DNA from: Clostridia bacterium
GTDB lineage: Bacteria > Bacillota > Clostridia > TANB77 > CAG-508
Reading direction: 5' to 3'
NCBI GenBank assembly: GCA_900752335.1
Contig: CAADUZ010000023.1
Location: 28,927-92,926 of the forward strand
Length of the DNA stretch: 64,000 nt
The notes below the pieces were generated by a model. That model saw only the letters and a program-made list of their open reading frames with translations, had not been told where the DNA came from and ran no database searches. Positions 23,938-42,692 of this stretch are shown here, piece after piece (the stretch's first letter is position 1; the number at the start of each line of letters is the position of its first letter). A program made the position numbers and the translations under genes.

Positions 23938-24110
23938 TGAGTAAAATTTCTAAGAGCAGTAGTTATAGTTCTTCAAGTAAAAATAAAAAATTATCTGCAA
24001 GTTCAATTTCGCAAAGAAATAAACATGGATATCGCCCAAATGGAGATAAGTCTAGCGATTGTTCAGCCCCTCCTTTTGGAGGCTCAAGTATACAAAATAA
24101 ATGCAAATAA
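23938..24110 (+). CDS. small Ser-rich hypothetical protein
   Basis: 57 aa starting MSKISKSSSYSSSSKNKK. The ATG is 2 nt after the previous stop. A hairpin AAAAGGTC-aaaa-GACCTTTT follows at 24111-24130. Confidence 0.35.
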
Positions 24111-24127
24111 AAAGGTCAAAAGACCTT

Positions 24128-24269
24128 TTTATTTATGCTTCTTATGTGAAGGCTGTCTTTGAGATAGTGCAGAACCTGCAATGGACTTTGTAGTCTTAGA
24201 AGTTCTTCCATCTTTAAGTGCCTTAGAAGCTTGACTTGCAACTCTTTTTGAAGTTTTTTTACAAGCCAT
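24128..24269 (-). CDS. 46-aa basic hypothetical protein
   Basis: Hand translation gives MACKKTSKRVASQASKALKDGRTSKTTKSIAGSALSQRQPSHKKHK. Strong RBS GAGGTGGTG (rc of 24277-24285). Confidence 0.45.
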
Positions 24270-24410
24270 ATTCATCACCACCTCTCTAGGAAAAAATCCT
24301 TCTCCATTAATTCATTCCTATTATGGTGATACATTAAATAATATATCATATTTTTTGTACAAAATCAAATTCTTGTTTGACATTTTCTAAAATTATGATA
24401 TAATAACAAT

Positions 24411-24501
24411 AGGAAATGGAGAAAACCACAAACGTGGCTTACCTCAAGTTAATATGTAAAAACACATCTAACTCGGGAAAGTTTTACAGATGTGTTTTTT
24501 T
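24411..24501 (+). ncRNA. candidate type I antitoxin sRNA 1
   Basis: Promoter TTGACA (24377-24382), 16 nt, TATAAT (24399-24404). Terminator stem AACACATCT/AGATGTGTT (24461-24496) plus a T-run. It is convergent with toxin 1 and shares that terminator hairpin. It contains the anti-SD-like GGCTTACCTC. Confidence 0.55.
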
Positions 24502-24506
24502 GTTGG

Positions 24507-24629
24507 TTATTTGCTCTTACGAAGTAGTATTACAAGTGCTATTATCGAAGTAAGAGCTATGATAGTTATTCCTATTAAAGCATAAAATAATATGTATATA
24601 ATTGTTATTAAATATCCAGTATCTATCAT
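24507..24629 (-). CDS. type I toxin-like 40-aa hydrophobic peptide 1
   Basis: MIDTGYLITIIYILFYALIGITIIALTSIIALVILLRKSK: a single TM with a basic tail. RBS GGAGGTGAGG. The upstream GCCTCC-aataa-GGAGGT hairpin can sequester the SD. Promoter TAGACA-17-TATACT (rc of 24691-24719). Confidence 0.65.
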   Translation of the reverse strand: MIDTGYLITIIYILFYALIGITIIALTSIIALVILLRKSK

Positions 24630-24870
24630 AAGCCTCACCTCCTTATTGGAGGCAAACCACATCTGCTTATTCTCATTTCCTACGCTTTCTAGTATAGTAT
24701 AATTTTACCTATTTGTCTATATAATATATCAAATTTTATTTTTTTCTTTTTAGTTTTCACTTTCTTATACTTCTCAATTAACAATAGTAATTTACTATAT
24801 TGTCCTCTATAAACAACTTAAACTTTGTTTTAGACCTTGGATTTTGTCTTATCAAATGGTTTTTACGGAT

Positions 24871-25066
24871 TTACGCACTCTTTAATTCAAGCCTCAATTT
24901 ATCAGCAATCATTGCGATAAATTCCGAATTTGTTGGCTTACCTTTTGCTGCTGATACTGTGTAGCCGAATATTCTCTCTACTACATCTTGCTTTCCCCTT
25001 CCCCATGCTACTTCTATTGCATGGCGAATTGCGCGTTCTACTCTGCTTGGGGTTGTGTGATATTTT
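24871..25066 (-). pseudogene. displaced 3' fragment of spo0A (spo0A')
   Basis: 24871-25056 aligns without gaps to 41874-42059, with 22 mismatches in 186 nt by hand. It encodes [61 protein letters not shown] plus a stop, 59/61 identical to the intact Spo0A C-terminus. There is no upstream ORF. Confidence 0.9.
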
Positions 25067-25377
25067 ATGTAGAGTTTATGATTGCAAAAATTTGACTAAA
25101 GCAATAAATATTTATAGCTTTTACCTCAATATGTTTATTGCATTGATTGTAATAGAACTTTTTTCGTTTGTCAATTTTATGAACTATACTTTTTATATTT
25201 TTTGTTATGCAAATCAAATTGCTATATACTTATACTTTTAATAATAGTTCAAAAATAAAAATAACATATTTCATTTACTGTTCTATTTCTTCTTTAATAA
25301 ATTATTATTTTAATTTACTTTTGGCTAAGAAATAAAATAAAGAATAAATGAACGATATCATTTATCCTTTATTTTTA

Positions 25378-26352
25378 TTATGATTTATTTCCCATTCCTA
25401 GCAATAAAGCCTGCCCCAAAAGTCCAATCACTTGACTATAAAACCATTGATGTTTATTAAAATGATTCCCTATCCTTTTACAAAGCCCCGTATTCTTAGC
25501 AATGTTTTTAGTTACATTCATATTATCTATGTAATCTTTGACTTCTTCTAATATTTGTTTTAATTCTTCCTTATCTTCGTTTCCCTTTTCTTCTATCTCT
25601 TTTTCTAAATGGTCAATAGAATTGTTTATTGTAACATTTGAATCTGTAATATTTCCCATATTCAAAAATCCTGTATTTGTTATATTTACTAACGGTCTAT
25701 TCATTTTTTCAATCTGCTCCATATATTTTTTCTCCCTTTCAAAATATGTTTTACCTGGATATGTTAATTCAGCACTATAAACTGTGTCAGAAGCCCAAGT
25801 AACATTTATTAATCCATTTTTAATTAGCATACCTATTATGCCTCTATTTAGCTCATCTTCTTCAATTTTATCTGATAAAAAAGTGTCTATATTCTCTTTT
25901 TTTTCATCTTTTATTATTATTTCTTTTAGTAATTCTTTTGCTTGGTCTGTTAATTCTTCAAACAATTCTTTTCTCATTCCTTTCTTTTCAAAATATGATA
26001 GAGCATCAGGTGTTAAAATTATATGCCAATCTCCACCTATATATAGTTTTCCAAAAGATATATATCCAAATAGTTTTAATCTTTCTATTATACCTTCAAT
26101 ATTGAAGTCCATATATTCAGGGAACTCATTACAATTTCCTGTAATTTGCATTATTTTACCATTATTACTTTTCGACAATAATATTAATAACATTGTTTCT
26201 TCTGTTTCCGATAATAATATCATTTTATTTGCTCCTACCAGATTATTTTTTTCTATTATTTCTTTTTGTTTATTTTGTATAATCTTGCCTATACTCTTAT
26301 TTAAATCTTTTTCAAAATTTTTTAAATTGCATTTAATTTTAATCTTTGCCAT
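25378..26352 (-). CDS. hypothetical protein with C-terminal hydrophobic helix
   Basis: 324 aa. No family recognised. C-terminus reads WFYSQVIGLLGQALLLGMG. It lies between the two type I toxin modules. Confidence 0.5.
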   Translation of the reverse strand: MAKIKIKCNLKNFEKDLNKSIGKIIQNKQKEIIEKNNLVGANKMILLSETEETMLLILLSKSNNGKIMQITGNCNEFPEYMDFNIEGIIERLKLFGYISFGKLYIGGDWHIILTPDALSYFEKKGMRKELFEELTDQAKELLKEIIIKDEKKENIDTFLSDKIEEDELNRGIIGMLIKNGLINVTWASDTVYSAELTYPGKTYFEREKKYMEQIEKMNRPLVNITNTGFLNMGNITDSNVTINNSIDHLEKEIEEKGNEDKEELKQILEEVKDYIDNMNVTKNIAKNTGLCKRIGNHFNKHQWFYSQVIGLLGQALLLGMGNKS

Positions 26353-26420
26353 ATAATACCCTTTCTAAATTATTTCTGCAAAAAGTTGACAATTTAATTA
26401 CAAATGTGTATAATAAGTAT

Positions 26421-26506
26421 AGGAAATGAAAGCCACTTTGTGGTTGCCGAAAAAAGATTTAAAAATAAACCATTTACTCGACCAAAGCAGAATGGTTTAT
26501 TTTTTA
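26421..26506 (+). ncRNA. candidate type I antitoxin sRNA 2
   Basis: Promoter TTGACA (26386-26391), 17 nt, TATAAT (26409-26414). Terminator AATAAACCATT/AATGGTTTATT (26464-26501) plus a T-run that overlaps the toxin 2 stop codon. Confidence 0.55.
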
Positions 26507-26620
26507 TTGCCTATGTAGTAAATACAAGATGATGAATACTAAGGCAAAATTTATGATAGTTACACCTACTAATCCAAAGAAAAGTAGTTTGATGATTAAC
26601 AATAATGCTGATTCTACCAT
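26504..26620 (-). CDS. type I toxin-like 38-aa hydrophobic peptide 2
   Basis: MVESALLLIIKLLFFGLVGVTIINFALVFIILYLLHRQ. RBS GGGGGTGGTG. A paralogue of toxin 1, sharing the G-(I/V)-T-I-I core. The 5' UTR is about 115 nt and starts ATAGGAAATGAGAATAAGC. Confidence 0.65.
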   Translation of the reverse strand: MVESALLLIIKLLFFGLVGVTIINFALVFIILYLLHRQ

Positions 26621-27395
26621 AGCACCACCCCCAGTTGTCAGTCTCACAAGCTAAAAGCTGTGGAAATAATATGTATACATCAAAGAGTAAAAGGTGGCAA
26701 CACACTCCGCTTATTCTCATTTCCTATGCTATCTACTATACTATATTTTTTTACAAAAAACAAGCGAACATAGTAAAGTTTTACAAATAATTTTATATGT
26801 TGTCCGTTTCTATTTCTTAATATTTTATGCTAGTTCAAAAATTAAGATAAGGTGCTTTATCTTGGGTTTATTTATAATTAAATAAACTTATATATATTAA
26901 AATAAATTCTTATTATTGGCTCAAATATAGAATAAATGAACTATGTATATAAAATTCTAATTTTATTATGCTAATAAGCTCAATGTTTTCAATAGTTCAC
27001 GGCGTCTACTTTTTAAAATGTTGTAAATTATTATATAAATTTTCATGTGATTATTTTTCTTTTCTAATATTATTATAATTTTTTGAAAGAGAAGGCTGGA
27101 GTATCTGATATAAGCCAAGTTCACTAATTCGCATAATTGCTTTTAAGGCATTTAAAATCGTGCAGACATAAAGTTATATTCCTAAAAAATAAAAAAGCCT
27201 TAAAATGGATTCTAGCAGGTCTGTTTGCTATTCACTAACTATAATTTTTGTGTTACAATTTAGAAAAGTTATAAAATATAATTTTATCTGTTTTTAATTA
27301 AATTTTATATAGTTATTTGAGTAATTTTTATATTATAAAAAACAAAAACGGTCTTTTTCTATCCTAAAAAAGAGCCGTTTTACAAATATTATATT

Positions 27396-28133
27396 TTAAT
27401 TCAAATATTCGCTAATGTCTTTACCTCCAGATATGTTTTTAAATAGTTCTTTTACACATATCTTAAATTCATCTCCTAATTTGTCAAATGCATCAAAAAA
27501 CTCGTTTATATCACTCCTTTTTTGTGTAGCTTTGTCAAATGCATCTAAATATCTATCTAAATTATTGAAATTAGTTTTATTTTTTTCCTCTAATCCTTCA
27601 ATAGCTGAAATTTCAGTCTTAAAAATTTCGACTGCCTCTTTTGTATTATTATAATATTTTCTGAGTTTTTTAAAATCTATATCATTAATTCTATATGTAT
27701 ATGTTGCAATTTCAATCTCGTCCATGTAACCGCCAAAATTATCATTTATTTTTTGATATAAATTAGTGGAAATCTTTTCTTCCATTTCATTTATTTGCTC
27801 TTGCTTAATTTTTTGCTTTTCTATTTCTTTTTGTTCTTGTATTTGTCTTTCTCTTTCTTCTTCAATAATTTCCTTAACCGTTTTTTCTAGTAATAGTGAA
27901 TTATCATTTCTCTTAATTGCTTCATTATACAATTTTTTTTCCTCATCAGTTAGCTTACTATTTGTTACTTTTTCATTGGTTTCATCTCCTGTATATTTTT
28001 GATTTAATACATTACTGAAAAATAAAAAAATACATATAATTGCTATTATAAATATAATGCTAAATATAGTTACTAATGTTATAATAAATTTATTTTTCTT
28101 TTTTCTCTCCATTTTATTTTCAATTCCTTTCAA
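27396..28133 (-). CDS. membrane-anchored coiled-coil protein
   Basis: 245 aa with an N-terminal TM and a Glu/Lys-rich coiled coil. No family recognised. Confidence 0.5.
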   Translation of the reverse strand: MKGIENKMERKKKNKFIITLVTIFSIIFIIAIICIFLFFSNVLNQKYTGDETNEKVTNSKLTDEEKKLYNEAIKRNDNSLLLEKTVKEIIEEERERQIQEQKEIEKQKIKQEQINEMEEKISTNLYQKINDNFGGYMDEIEIATYTYRINDIDFKKLRKYYNNTKEAVEIFKTEISAIEGLEEKNKTNFNNLDRYLDAFDKATQKRSDINEFFDAFDKLGDEFKICVKELFKNISGGKDISEYLN

Positions 28134-32036: not shown

Positions 32037-32885
32037 CTATAAAATATTAATTCTTTCTTTTATTTCTTCTTGTGAAGGATTTACATATATTTCTGTTGTT
32101 CTTGTACTTGCATGTCCTCCTATCATTGCTATTTCAATAAGCGAAAAGCCTTTTTTTTGCATATTAGTAAAGCAATAATGCCTTCCTCCGTGAGGTGTCA
32201 AAACACTCGAATATTTATTGAATATCTGATTTATTCTGCTACGACTTACTTTTTTTGACTGTCTACTGACAAACAAATATGAGCTGTCGCTTTTTCTTTC
32301 TTTTAGATATTCTTTTATTGCCTCCACGACTTTGTCGTTCATAAAAACTGTTCTAACTTTTCCGCCTTTTCCGTTTCTTACTATTATTTCTTTACTTGTC
32401 AAGTCAAAATCTGTCATTTGAATATTTAAGCACTCACTAATACGCAAACCTACATAAACAATTATAGTTACTATTGCATAGTCTCTTTTTGTCTCATTTT
32501 CTAATATCTGTTGTCTAAATCTTTCTATGTCTGATGCGTTTACCTTACACGGATTTATATGTTGCTTTTGTATTTTAATAAAATCGTTATCATTTAAAAC
32601 AATGTCTTGTTGTATTTCACTATCTACTAAATATTTGTTATATTTCATTATTGCTGATAAGTTAGCATTAATTGTTTCCGCTTTTAGTGTTTGTCCTTTT
32701 TTCGTTTTCTTTATATTTCGTAAGTAGCTTTTGTAATCTAATACATTAGGTCTATATATTTTTTTCAATTCCTCGCCTGTTGTATCTTTATACCATTTTT
32801 TAAAATTTTCTATGTTTTGTATGTAAGTTTGTATTGTGTTTTGTGATTTGTTTTGTTCTGATAAATAATTTTTAAAATCTTCCAT
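32037..32885 (-). CDS. tyrosine recombinase (XerC/D-like), second recombinase of the element
   Basis: 282 aa from ATG 32885 (AAAGGAGTGG upstream). Catalytic set visible: GLRISE (R), GKGGKVR (K), HGGRH (H-x-x-R), GGHAS (H), TEIY (Y). Confidence 0.8.
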   Translation of the reverse strand: MEDFKNYLSEQNKSQNTIQTYIQNIENFKKWYKDTTGEELKKIYRPNVLDYKSYLRNIKKTKKGQTLKAETINANLSAIMKYNKYLVDSEIQQDIVLNDNDFIKIQKQHINPCKVNASDIERFRQQILENETKRDYAIVTIIVYVGLRISECLNIQMTDFDLTSKEIIVRNGKGGKVRTVFMNDKVVEAIKEYLKERKSDSSYLFVSRQSKKVSRSRINQIFNKYSSVLTPHGGRHYCFTNMQKKGFSLIEIAMIGGHASTRTTEIYVNPSQEEIKERINIL

Positions 32886-33077
32886 TCGTTCCACTCCTTT
32901 CTGTGTAATTATGTTTAACTTGTTTTTTATACTTTTATATGTAATTATGCTTAACTCAATATATGAATTATACAAGTTTTAGCATTCTAGCTCAACATAA
33001 TTGACATTATGATAAACTCATTTTATTTTTTGGTTTAGGCTACTATATAATGTATAAGAAAACATAGTAGCCTTATT

Positions 33078-40663: not shown

Positions 40664-41647
40664 TTATTTTTTTAAGTTCATTAGTGGCGAAAACCTCTGA
40701 TACTTTTTCCTTAAATCTTCTGTCTCTAAGTCTAAATAGCACTCCTCTGTTACCTTTACTGAACTATGTCCCAAAATTTTTGATAATGTATAAATATCTC
40801 CACCATTCATTAAAAATCTTTTTGCGAAATTATTTCGTAACATATGAGGATGTATATCTTTCTTCCCAATTCTCTCTCCATATACAGTAAAATTACTTTC
40901 AAAACTTCTTATTTCTAGCCTACTTCCTCTTGTAGTGCAAAAACAAAATTCACTGTCTTTGTATCTATCTCTATATTGTAGCCATCTTCTTAATTCTGTT
41001 CCCATTTGAACTGAAAAAAACACATATCTATCTTTCTTACCTTTTGTTATATCTGCTGATAAAAATATTGTTCGTTCATTAAAATTTATATCAGTTTCAT
41101 CTCTTATCATTAAACATTCGCCAACCCTCATACCAGTATCAAATATGAGTTGTGTTATAACATAATCCCTATATTCGTGAAATTTTGATAAATCAAAGCA
41201 TTTTAGTAATTTTGCAAACATTTCATCTTCTAAATAATCTTTTACCTTTCTAGGTGTTTTAATTGTTTTTATATTACTTACAGGATTGGTTTTTATTAAT
41301 CTGTTTTCATACATATAATTAAAATAAACTCTCATATTCCTAATATAATTGTTTATTGTTACTAAACTTACTTTTTTTCCAAAGTCTCCTCTGTTCTGTG
41401 GATTGTTTATCTTTTTTGATTTTTCATTATAAACAACTGTATATTTTCCCCTTTCTTTTAAGTTTTCAATATAATCTTTTAAATGTTTTTCTTTTACCTG
41501 CTCTGTTTTAGTTATATCAAATTTCTCTTTTAGATAAATAACTAAAAGTCGCAAAGACTGTTCATAACTCCCATAAGTCTTTTGTGATAGCCCCTTATAA
41601 TCACAATAATTAATAAAATCATCAATTTCTAAATCAATTTTTTCCAT
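40664..41647 (-). CDS. int: tyrosine integrase (phage integrase family)
   Basis: 327 aa from ATG 41647 (AAGGAGG upstream). N-terminal SAM-like domain. Catalytic residues: TGMRVGE (R), HPHMLRNNF (H-x-x-R), LGHSSVKVTEECY (H, Y). It is 226 nt from the spo0A stop. Confidence 0.85.
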   Translation of the reverse strand: MEKIDLEIDDFINYCDYKGLSQKTYGSYEQSLRLLVIYLKEKFDITKTEQVKEKHLKDYIENLKERGKYTVVYNEKSKKINNPQNRGDFGKKVSLVTINNYIRNMRVYFNYMYENRLIKTNPVSNIKTIKTPRKVKDYLEDEMFAKLLKCFDLSKFHEYRDYVITQLIFDTGMRVGECLMIRDETDINFNERTIFLSADITKGKKDRYVFFSVQMGTELRRWLQYRDRYKDSEFCFCTTRGSRLEIRSFESNFTVYGERIGKKDIHPHMLRNNFAKRFLMNGGDIYTLSKILGHSSVKVTEECYLDLETEDLRKKYQRFSPLMNLKK

Positions 41648-41756
41648 ACAAAAATTCCTCCTTACATTTATTATTTTTAACAAACATAAAGAGGAAATTT
41701 TTTCCATATTTCATAACCAATAAATTTTTAATTTATTGCTATCACTTAAAATAGTT

Positions 41757-41873: not shown

Positions 41874-42692
41874 TTATGCTGTTTTTAATTCAAGCCTCAA
41901 TTTATCAGCTATCATTGCGATAAACTCTGAATTTGTTGGCTTGCCTTTTGCTGCAGACACCGTATATCCAAATATTCTTTCTACTACGTCTTGTTGTCCA
42001 CGTCCCCATGCTACTTCTATTGCATGGCGAATTGCACGTTCTACTCTGCTTGGAGTTGTTCTATATTTCTCTGCAATTTCTGGATATAGCTGTTTTGTTA
42101 TTTGATTAATCATATCAATATCGCTTACTACCATTACTATGGCTTCTCTTAAATATTGATATCCTTTAATATGAGCTGGAACTCCCACTTCATGTATTAT
42201 ATTCGTAACTAATGCTTCTAAATTTTTCTCACTTTTTTGTGTTGCTGGGGGTATATTTATATATTGTGATTTTATTTCTCTACTTATTACATTTGTCTTG
42301 TTGTTTGTTGGTTGATAATATTTTAAATCTTTTATTCTCCTTACTAATATATTTATATCAAATGGTTTTACTATGTAATATTGTGCCCCTAATTCAATGG
42401 CTTTTCTTGTTATTTTGTCTTGACCTACTGCTGATAATATGATGCACATAGGTTTTTTGCTTAAATCTGCTGTATTTAATTTTTCTAATACACCTAGTCC
42501 ATCTAAATGTGGCATTATTATGTCTAATAATGCTATGTCCGGTTTTGTTTCCACTATTTTGTTATAGGCGTCTTGCCCATCTCTTGCTATTCCTACTACT
42601 TCTAGGTCTTCGTCTTTTGATAAATAGCTAACTAAAGTTCTTGCAAAGTCTTGATTGTCATCTGATACTAAAATCTTGATTTTCTCATTCAA
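41874..42692 (-). CDS. spo0A: sporulation master regulator Spo0A (chimeric: last ~60 codons element-derived)
   Basis: 272 aa. The receiver has DDN...[11 protein letters not shown]. The C-terminal Spo0A DNA-binding domain has [17 protein letters not shown]...[15 protein letters not shown]. Confidence 0.95.

Follow-up and report, generated by a model that had tools for sequence, protein, structure and literature searches.

A predicted type I toxin-antitoxin module of an unannotated family on a spo0A-integrated element of gut Clostridia

Introduction

Among the described toxin-antitoxin (TA) systems of type I, the layout closest to that of the locus reported here is found in par of pAD1 from Enterococcus faecalis, which specifies Fst/RNA I-RNA II and whose relatives include SprA1/SprA1AS (PMC7472228; T1TAdb, PMC8594479). 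The locus, referred to as module 2, is a convergent pair of a toxin-like gene and a small RNA (sRNA) gene within a 64-kb stretch of DNA from a Clostridia bacterium (the window; contig CAADUZ010000023.1), where it lies inside a mobile element integrated at spo0A. As in par/Fst-RNA II, the two promoters converge on a bidirectional intrinsic terminator with complementary stem-loops that would be able to kiss, and the antisense RNA overlaps the 3' end of the mRNA and not the open reading frame (ORF) (PMC7472228, PMC8594479). The two systems further resemble each other in a short antitoxin RNA, an intramolecular 5' stem-loop that is predicted here to hide the Shine-Dalgarno (SD) sequence, and a single-helix membrane peptide of 30–40 amino acids (aa).

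The txpA/RatA and bsrG/SR4 systems of the Bacillus subtilis skin and SPbeta elements are also Gram-positive, with a 3'-overlapping antisense RNA and a peptide of similar size, and formation of the RNA duplex leads there to mRNA decay. They too reside on integrated elements, one of which interrupts a sporulation gene (skin in sigK; PMC6563280). In contrast to module 2, where the overlap ends at the stop codon, their antisense RNAs are longer and overlap the toxin ORF (PMC8594479), and no protein or RNA family was found that module 2 has in common with either system. The type I TA systems of Clostridioides difficile, such as CD0956.2/RCd10, CD0977.1/RCd11 and others (PMC5961336, PMC7699646, PMC6563280), are likewise clostridial, convergent and overlapping gene pairs; they are located on prophages and the skin element and have been shown to stabilize mobile elements. 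Module 2 differs from these in belonging to another host clade and in having no DNA similarity to deposited phages, and its C-terminal HRQ tail sets the peptide apart, by description, from the C. difficile toxins (PMC6563280).

Comparative sequence analysis leads us to the view, to which we assign a probability of about 0.7, that module 2 is a type I TA system of an unannotated family in small-genome gut Clostridia, and that it would stabilize the spo0A-integrated element. The family itself is best read as large, new and so far unannotated, probably within a known kind, the type I TA systems. An original prediction made from this DNA had proposed a type I TA-like module on the element, a proposal that is well supported by the coding signal of the ORF, the asymmetry of the promoters, the helix that would sequester the SD sequence, the overlap of the two RNAs and the place of the same module subtype at two related loci, L074 and L066.

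Organization of module 2 and its predicted RNAs

The positions of the module and its parts are given in Table 1. Translation of the minus strand confirmed the 38-codon ORF, and the G-rich ribosome-binding site proposed in front of it was found at the expected place. The ORF specifies what type I toxins are known for, a small (<60 aa) hydrophobic peptide with a predicted transmembrane helix, and AlphaFold2, run with the family alignment, models the peptide as one continuous helix from residue 2 to residue 37 with a predicted local distance difference test (pLDDT) score of 96.4. A similar module, module 1, lies nearby in the window (24378–24720), and the G-(I/V)-T-I-I core that had been noted as common to both peptides is real; overall, the two peptides share 34% identity. 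Unlike Fst, the family lacks the PXXXG motif, with no proline in any of its 80 distinct peptides, and there is no match to the Fst family.

The sRNA promoter is the sole perfect match to TTGACA-17-TATAAT in the window, where 0.08 would be expected, in agreement with its earlier description as perfect. The toxin promoter is a weaker match, and its position puts the 5' end of the mRNA at ~26727, directly before TAGGAAATGAGAATAAGC. Measured from this conserved 5' end the leader is ~106–108 nt long, shorter than the ~115 nt first proposed. The far end given for the module (26386–26760) was set slightly short, since the toxin promoter reaches 3 nt further, and the unit is thus taken as 26386–26763. 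The difference in promoter strength seen here (12/12 for the sRNA vs 9/12 for the toxin) extends throughout the family, with mean matches of 11.5/12 for the sRNA promoter (perfect in 49 of 81 modules) and 8.9/12 for the toxin promoter, the former being the better one in 77 of 81 modules.

The sRNA, whose ends are predicted, has a calculated folding energy of −17.2 kcal/mol (z = −2.55). The stem of its 5' hairpin, HP1, carries compensating changes between subfamilies (ACCAC/GUGGU, CCACA/UGUG, AUACA/UGUAU), and among 79 distinct family sRNAs HP1 folds in 78 and the terminator in all 79. These counts come from per-sequence folds, adopted because misalignment of the terminator classes by MAFFT left the sRNAs as a whole with no consensus structure. 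The terminator that the original prediction had placed over the toxin stop codon was confirmed at 26462–26503, with a U tail reaching 26504–26506. Read on the minus strand, the hairpin is preceded by an A run and followed by a U run and can therefore terminate both transcripts. Complementarity between the sRNA and the mRNA is confined to this terminator, where it is perfect over ~42–45 nt and ends at the toxin stop. As for a type I antisense RNA, the predicted contact is thus a shared terminator, with a cognate duplex energy of −64.9 kcal/mol.

Table 1. Positions of module 2, its parts and neighboring features in the window
Feature	Position	Strand	Remarks
Module 2 unit	26386-26763		convergent toxin-like gene and sRNA, ~380 bases
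Toxin-like ORF	26504-26620	minus	38 codons; translation MVESALLLIIKLLFFGLVGVTIINFALVFIILYLLHRQ
Toxin stop codon	26504-26506	minus	
Shine-Dalgarno sequence	26623-26632	minus	GGGGGTGGTG (GGGGGUGGUG); G-rich, 2 nt before ATG; followed by CT-ATG
Anti-SD, 5' untranslated region (UTR)	26693-26700	minus	UUGCCACC; pairs with SD
5' UTR segment just 5' of anti-SD	26699-26712	minus	AAGCGGAGUGUGUU; complementary to the mRNA's own ascending terminator arm, 26485-26498
Conserved toxin mRNA 5' end	26709-26726	minus	UAGGAAAUGAGAAUAAGC, 18 nt; the sRNA 5' end repeats its first 9 nt
Toxin promoter	-35 26763-26758, -10 26740-26735	minus	TTGTTT-17-TATAGT, 9/12
sRNA (antitoxin) promoter	26386-26414	plus	TTGACA-17-TATAAT, 12/12
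Predicted sRNA	~26419-26503	plus	~85 nt; 5' AUAGGAAAUG, HP1, A/U-rich linker, terminator hairpin
sRNA 5' hairpin HP1	26431-26445	plus	6 bp; AGCCAC-UUU-GUGGUU, then GCC
Bidirectional intrinsic terminator	26462-26503	both	14-bp stem, A/U-rich
spo0A	41874-42692	minus	
Tyrosine integrase adjoining spo0A	40664-41707		
spo0A 3' copy	24871-25056		last 186 nt, ~88% identical
Second tyrosine integrase	32037-32975	minus	inside element
Membrane protein	27396-28133	minus	weak SieB (superinfection exclusion) match, 21.5 bits (Pfam cut-off 26)
324-aa ORF	25378-26352	minus	between module 2 and element end; no Pfam match

Structure of the toxin mRNA leader

The SD sequence is predicted to be held by an anti-SD in the 5' UTR of the same mRNA, and the two co-vary across subfamilies as CCUCC:GGAGG, CCACC:GGUGG and CCGCCC:GGCGGG. 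The helix was recovered in the RNAalifold consensus of subfamilies A, B, C and D. A second interaction involves the UTR segment just upstream of the anti-SD, whose sequence complements the ascending terminator arm of the same mRNA together with the loop next to that arm. The energy of this duplex is −15.1 kcal/mol in module 2 and −15.3 kcal/mol on average in the family, compared with −5.3 ± 2.3 kcal/mol for shuffled sequences; the pairing tracks the terminator class across subfamilies and forms a consensus (alifold) helix in subfamilies B, D and E. The UTR pairs more strongly with its own terminator arm than with the near-identical arm of the sRNA in 72 of 73 modules, and these features together point to an intramolecular 5'–3' fold-back of the toxin mRNA. 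This may set the family apart from par, in which an upstream helix closes the 5' end. In the minimum-energy fold of the module 2 mRNA (frequency 0.0002) GGAAAUGA is paired with UUAUUUCC, a segment with no counterpart in subfamily B leaders; this single-sequence fold is poorly determined and the comparative folds were therefore relied on.

Long-distance 5'–3' pairing of a toxin mRNA, beside a structure that occludes the SD sequence, is a feature of hok/sok of plasmid R1, and fold-back inhibition of hok was reportedly described by Franch et al. in 1997, a study cited in PMC8594479. The hok/sok system is Gram-negative and has a different toxin family, and there the antisense RNA targets the 5' leader by way of the mok frame. 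The likeness of module 2 to hok would therefore be one of possible working, namely the 5'-to-3' fold-back, and not of family membership. Module 2 and its relatives would in that respect provide a Gram-positive case for 5'–3' fold-back control of a toxin mRNA. Taken together, the predicted excess of antitoxin and an mRNA structure that would restrain translation of the toxin are those of a type I system.

An AUG inside the conserved 18-mer (26709–26720, and throughout the family) opens a short frame, MRIS.... A mok-like upstream ORF starting there was rejected as a general feature, as it fails in subfamily A and in module 2 and varies from 10 to 69 codons; in 39 of 75 modules its stop lies no more than 30 nt from the toxin start (control frames, 0 and 15), and at several D-type loci it runs in frame into the toxin ORF. 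Two leaders (loci L119 and L042), lengthened to 123 and 175 nt, carry an insertion of ~70 nt that immediately follows the 18-mer and ends in a duplication of ATAAGC.

Specificity of pairing and similarity of the two RNAs

The genome has three modules, the third being on contig C35. In module 2, the terminator duplex of −64.9 kcal/mol with the cognate sRNA compares with −16.5 and −23.1 kcal/mol for the other two sRNAs. Across all three, cognate terminator duplexes range from −65 to −72 kcal/mol and all cross pairs from −12 to −23 kcal/mol, those between modules 1 and 2 being −16.5 to −17.7 kcal/mol. The three terminators are thus orthogonal, and control by each sRNA would be expected to extend to its own toxin alone. 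A similar separation was found in ten other multi-copy genomes, with a median cross/cognate duplex ratio of 0.34, and the family may be regarded as a natural series of orthogonal RNA–RNA pairs.

In contrast to par, no second complementarity of the DRa/DRb type covering the SD or start was detected, and module 2 has none to the UTR. Pairing of the sRNA 5' half with the whole leader was not above that of shuffles for module 2, and for sRNA nt 1–42 against the translation-initiation region the cognate value of −13.3 lies within the range of shuffled (−11.7 ± 3.1) and non-cognate (−13.0) sequences. The 5' arm of the sRNA hairpin pairs with the UTR at −6.2 in module 2, and a modest signal (−12.5) was seen in the GUGGUUU class only. 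A par-like second pairing site in module 2, considered as a candidate, was rejected because its pairing is no better than shuffles.

Also unlike par, the 5' half of the sRNA (~35 nt) copies the toxin 5' UTR in the same sense. Both RNAs begin with AUAGGAAAU in module 1, in module 2 (26386–26763) and in the contig C35 copy (C35:3220–3580), and this is followed by a GUGG...GCC block that in the mRNA runs into the anti-SD. Same-sense similarity between sRNA and UTR is 20.6 for cognate pairs, 15.5 for other subfamilies and 11.7 ± 2.4 for shuffles, and it co-varies across subfamilies. The likeness could possibly have arisen by gene conversion between inverted repeats or reflect a common reader of the two 5' ends. 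It would be a speculative step, and we think it quite improbable, that the antitoxin is in addition a molecular mimic or decoy that competes for the reader of the mRNA 5' end, alongside antisense pairing and the hok-like fold-back. The target of the decoy could be a ribosome standby site, an RNase or an RNA-binding protein, and the fold-back site of the mRNA on its own terminator arm coincides with the sRNA-binding site. If true, the antitoxin would be two-pronged, with one end acting as antisense and the opposite end as decoy; we know of no described case of this kind.

Proposed mechanism

In the proposed mechanism, the weak sigma-A-type toxin promoter would give an mRNA of ~270 nt for the 38-residue single-helix membrane peptide. 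Its SD sequence would be locked by the anti-SD in its own 5' UTR, and the UTR segment upstream of the anti-SD would fold back onto the ascending arm of its own terminator. The consensus promoter on the opposite strand would give the sRNA of ~85 nt, whose terminator hairpin is the predicted exact complement of the mRNA terminator hairpin. The abundant sRNA and the mRNA would make contact by way of their complementary terminator loops and zip into a long duplex, which may mark the mRNA for RNase III-type decay or keep it in a closed, untranslatable fold. Should the element be lost, or transcription of the sRNA stop, the sRNA would decay first and the peptide would be made; by damaging the membrane, the peptide would cause the module to stabilize the spo0A-integrated element.

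Several observations weigh against this interpretation. A duplex lying purely at the 3' end would have to block translation, and sRNA pairing to the initiation region was undetectable. The anti-SD helix is absent from the minimum-energy structure calculated for the module 2 mRNA by itself, which has a frequency of 0.0002, and the A/U-rich terminator hairpin was missed by a simple terminator scan, which requires at least three G-C pairs. The HRQ tail of the peptide is far less charged than the tails of most described type I toxins, and the constraint on the peptide in subfamily A is modest, with a ratio of nonsynonymous to synonymous polymorphism (pN/pS) of 0.69. Finally, deposited phage and plasmid records gave no match to the module, so that the link to mobile elements is drawn solely from context in metagenome-assembled genomes (MAGs). 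Two IMG/VR matches to the 18-mer were dismissed as chance, being without promoter or module.

Distribution and conservation of the module family

The family appears to have escaped annotation. In Rfam there was no match at the gathering threshold in the window, and at E ≤ 10 over positions 24000–27400 only chance eukaryotic and viral matches were obtained. Pfam, NCBIfam, PHROGs and PDB sequences gave no family match, with no Pfam or NCBIfam toxin family at E ≤ 10, and a collection of 5.8 billion proteins contained only two relatives of the module 2 peptide. Nothing resembling the module family was found in the literature searched, including PMC6563280, PMC7472228 and PMC8594479.

The conserved 18-mer also heads module 1 (24665–24682) and the copy on contig C35, and profile searches of the 93%-complete, 1.2-Mb assembly found exactly these three copies. 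A scan of one genome per species located the 18-mer in at least 120 loci, nearly all in MAGs of uncultured gut Clostridia from rabbit, chicken, ruminant and human. In the order itself, 143 of 401 genomes contain it with at most one mismatch, at 1–6 copies each and most of them in the window's own family, and a reversed control pattern gave no match in the 401 genomes; outside the order it was present in 2 of 289 genomes of the class. About a third of the sampled genomes in one order of uncultured, small-genome gut Clostridia thus carry this module family. The search for the peptide family in other Clostridia, which had been suggested as a check, yielded a large family of 80 distinct homologous peptides that fall into six subfamilies, with module 2 ending in ...HRQ, module 1 in ...SKSK and the C35 copy in ...LSK. 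The convergent unit is kept in 84 of the 88 loci that have the ORF, with a near-consensus promoter, a 5' AUAGGAAAU, a hairpin then GCC, an A/U linker and a terminator.

Conservation of the locus is highest in RNA features, namely the 5' end of 18 nt, the motif at the 5' end of the sRNA, and the terminator, as would be expected if the ORF were untranslated and the locus were a pair of convergent non-coding RNAs. We consider this very improbable. A hydrophobic ORF of 33–40 aa with a strong SD at the correct spacing is present in 88 of the 97 loci that have enough flank, its start lying 53–107 nt from the 18-mer in nearly all of the 88, and it remains open even though the leader lengths differ by non-multiples of three. 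Moreover, pN/pS is below 1 in all six subfamilies (0.28–0.69) and codon position 2, which specifies hydrophobicity, varies least. The 38-codon ORF is accordingly predicted to be coding.

Degenerate toxins and toxin-less relics account for ~11 of 40 loci in multi-copy genomes, through nonsense mutation, frameshift or fusion of the UTR to the sRNA start, and such frequent decay of the toxin fits a costly gene. In two toxin-less relics from separate genomes, L133 (G237:C10:19652–20232) and L142 (G089:C1:136129–136709), the 18-mer and AGA(A/T)GTGGTTT are joined directly to CTCC(G/A)TTTCCTAT and the sRNA promoter, an arrangement that would result from loss of the ORF and terminator by deletion between copies of the short direct repeat GTGGTTT. 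On contig C29 of the window's genome, a weak partial match to the sRNA 5' half (C29:26–64, E = 0.087) lies at the end of a 1-kb contig and may be a fourth copy cut by the contig end.

Genomic context of the modules

The element is bounded by a duplication of the 3' end of spo0A. Beyond the integrase next to spo0A it carries a gene resembling S24-helix-turn-helix repressors, one resembling DEAD-box helicases with a score under the Pfam cut-off, the second integrase and a membrane-protein cassette (Table 1). Module 2 lies 1.3–1.7 kb inside the distal end of the element, and module 1 is found past the displaced end of spo0A, at a distance of 189 nt. Elsewhere in the family, 17 of 93 modules are located 107–855 nt downstream of the spo0A 3' end, with spo0A full-length in 16 of these 17, and since modules so often directly follow spo0A, module 1 fills what is a conserved chromosomal slot. 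Module 2 is then judged to have arrived with the element, which accounts for the two look-alike modules that flank the element junction in the window. At locus L074 an HRQ-type module abuts the sequence of the element end and a spo0A remnant; the 324-aa ORF is missing from this otherwise collinear junction and is thus a variable cargo gene. At L066, the HRQ subtype adjoins the same membrane-protein cargo as in the window. Modules of the HRQ subtype occur in the post-spo0A slot as well (L037, L046 and L078).

The presence of one copy on each side of attR had been taken to suggest either repeated occupation of the site or recombination between copies. Repeated occupation is seen in relatives, where serial use of the site has left two spo0A' remnants at L049 and integrase remnants at L010, L044, L058 and L119; the window itself holds one spo0A remnant only. 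Recombination between the copies is unsupported, as the two modules belong to different subfamilies (34% identity) and have orthogonal terminators.

The frequent position downstream of spo0A raises the possibility that the ORF specifies a non-toxic small membrane protein with a physiological role, perhaps linked to sporulation and tuned by its cis-antisense RNA. The short, weakly charged C-terminal tail would fit such a role, and C. difficile does have small membrane proteins that control sporulation (PMC13724677). Those proteins, however, are 58 aa long, controlled by a riboswitch and found in that species only. Modules next to tRNA genes are as many as those next to spo0A (18 of 93 within 1 kb, often beside tRNA-Gly and tRNA-Cys), both being integration hot spots; the copy number of 0–6 and patchy presence in 143 of 401 genomes, the frequency of pseudogenes and relics, and the orthogonality of co-resident copies likewise speak against a physiological role. 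A Spo0A box in the conserved terminator loop was also considered and rejected, the exact TGNCGAA being present in only 1 of 66 loops. On balance we regard a physiological role as rather unlikely.

The context bears also on what a type I TA system would have been selected for. The weak SieB-like membrane protein on the element (21.5 bits against a Pfam cut-off of 26), the clustering of modules at contested sites of integration, where earlier elements have left nested remnants, and the existence of chromosomal copies without any element, such as that on contig C35, would be consistent with selection for abortive infection or for excluding competing elements from the same attachment site. No copy was found in deposited phage genomes, however, and such a role is compatible with stabilization; selection for abortive infection or exclusion is in our estimation unlikely. 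Stabilization of the spo0A-integrated element remains the preferred role for module 2, and the context taken as a whole agrees with a selfish module that is carried by elements and frequently persists after its own element has gone.

In addition to the 3' end of spo0A, the tRNA-Gly/tRNA-Cys site forms a second hot spot. Modules mark these integration hot spots and can therefore point to mobile elements, and to the scars they leave, in MAGs. A recurrent arrangement of tRNA-Gly, tRNA-Cys and a module within a few hundred bases was observed at nine loci (L005, L007, L011, L038, L048, L061, L073, L105 and L113), and at L011 (4858–6250) three modules of different subtypes stand in tandem directly after tRNA-Gly and tRNA-Cys.

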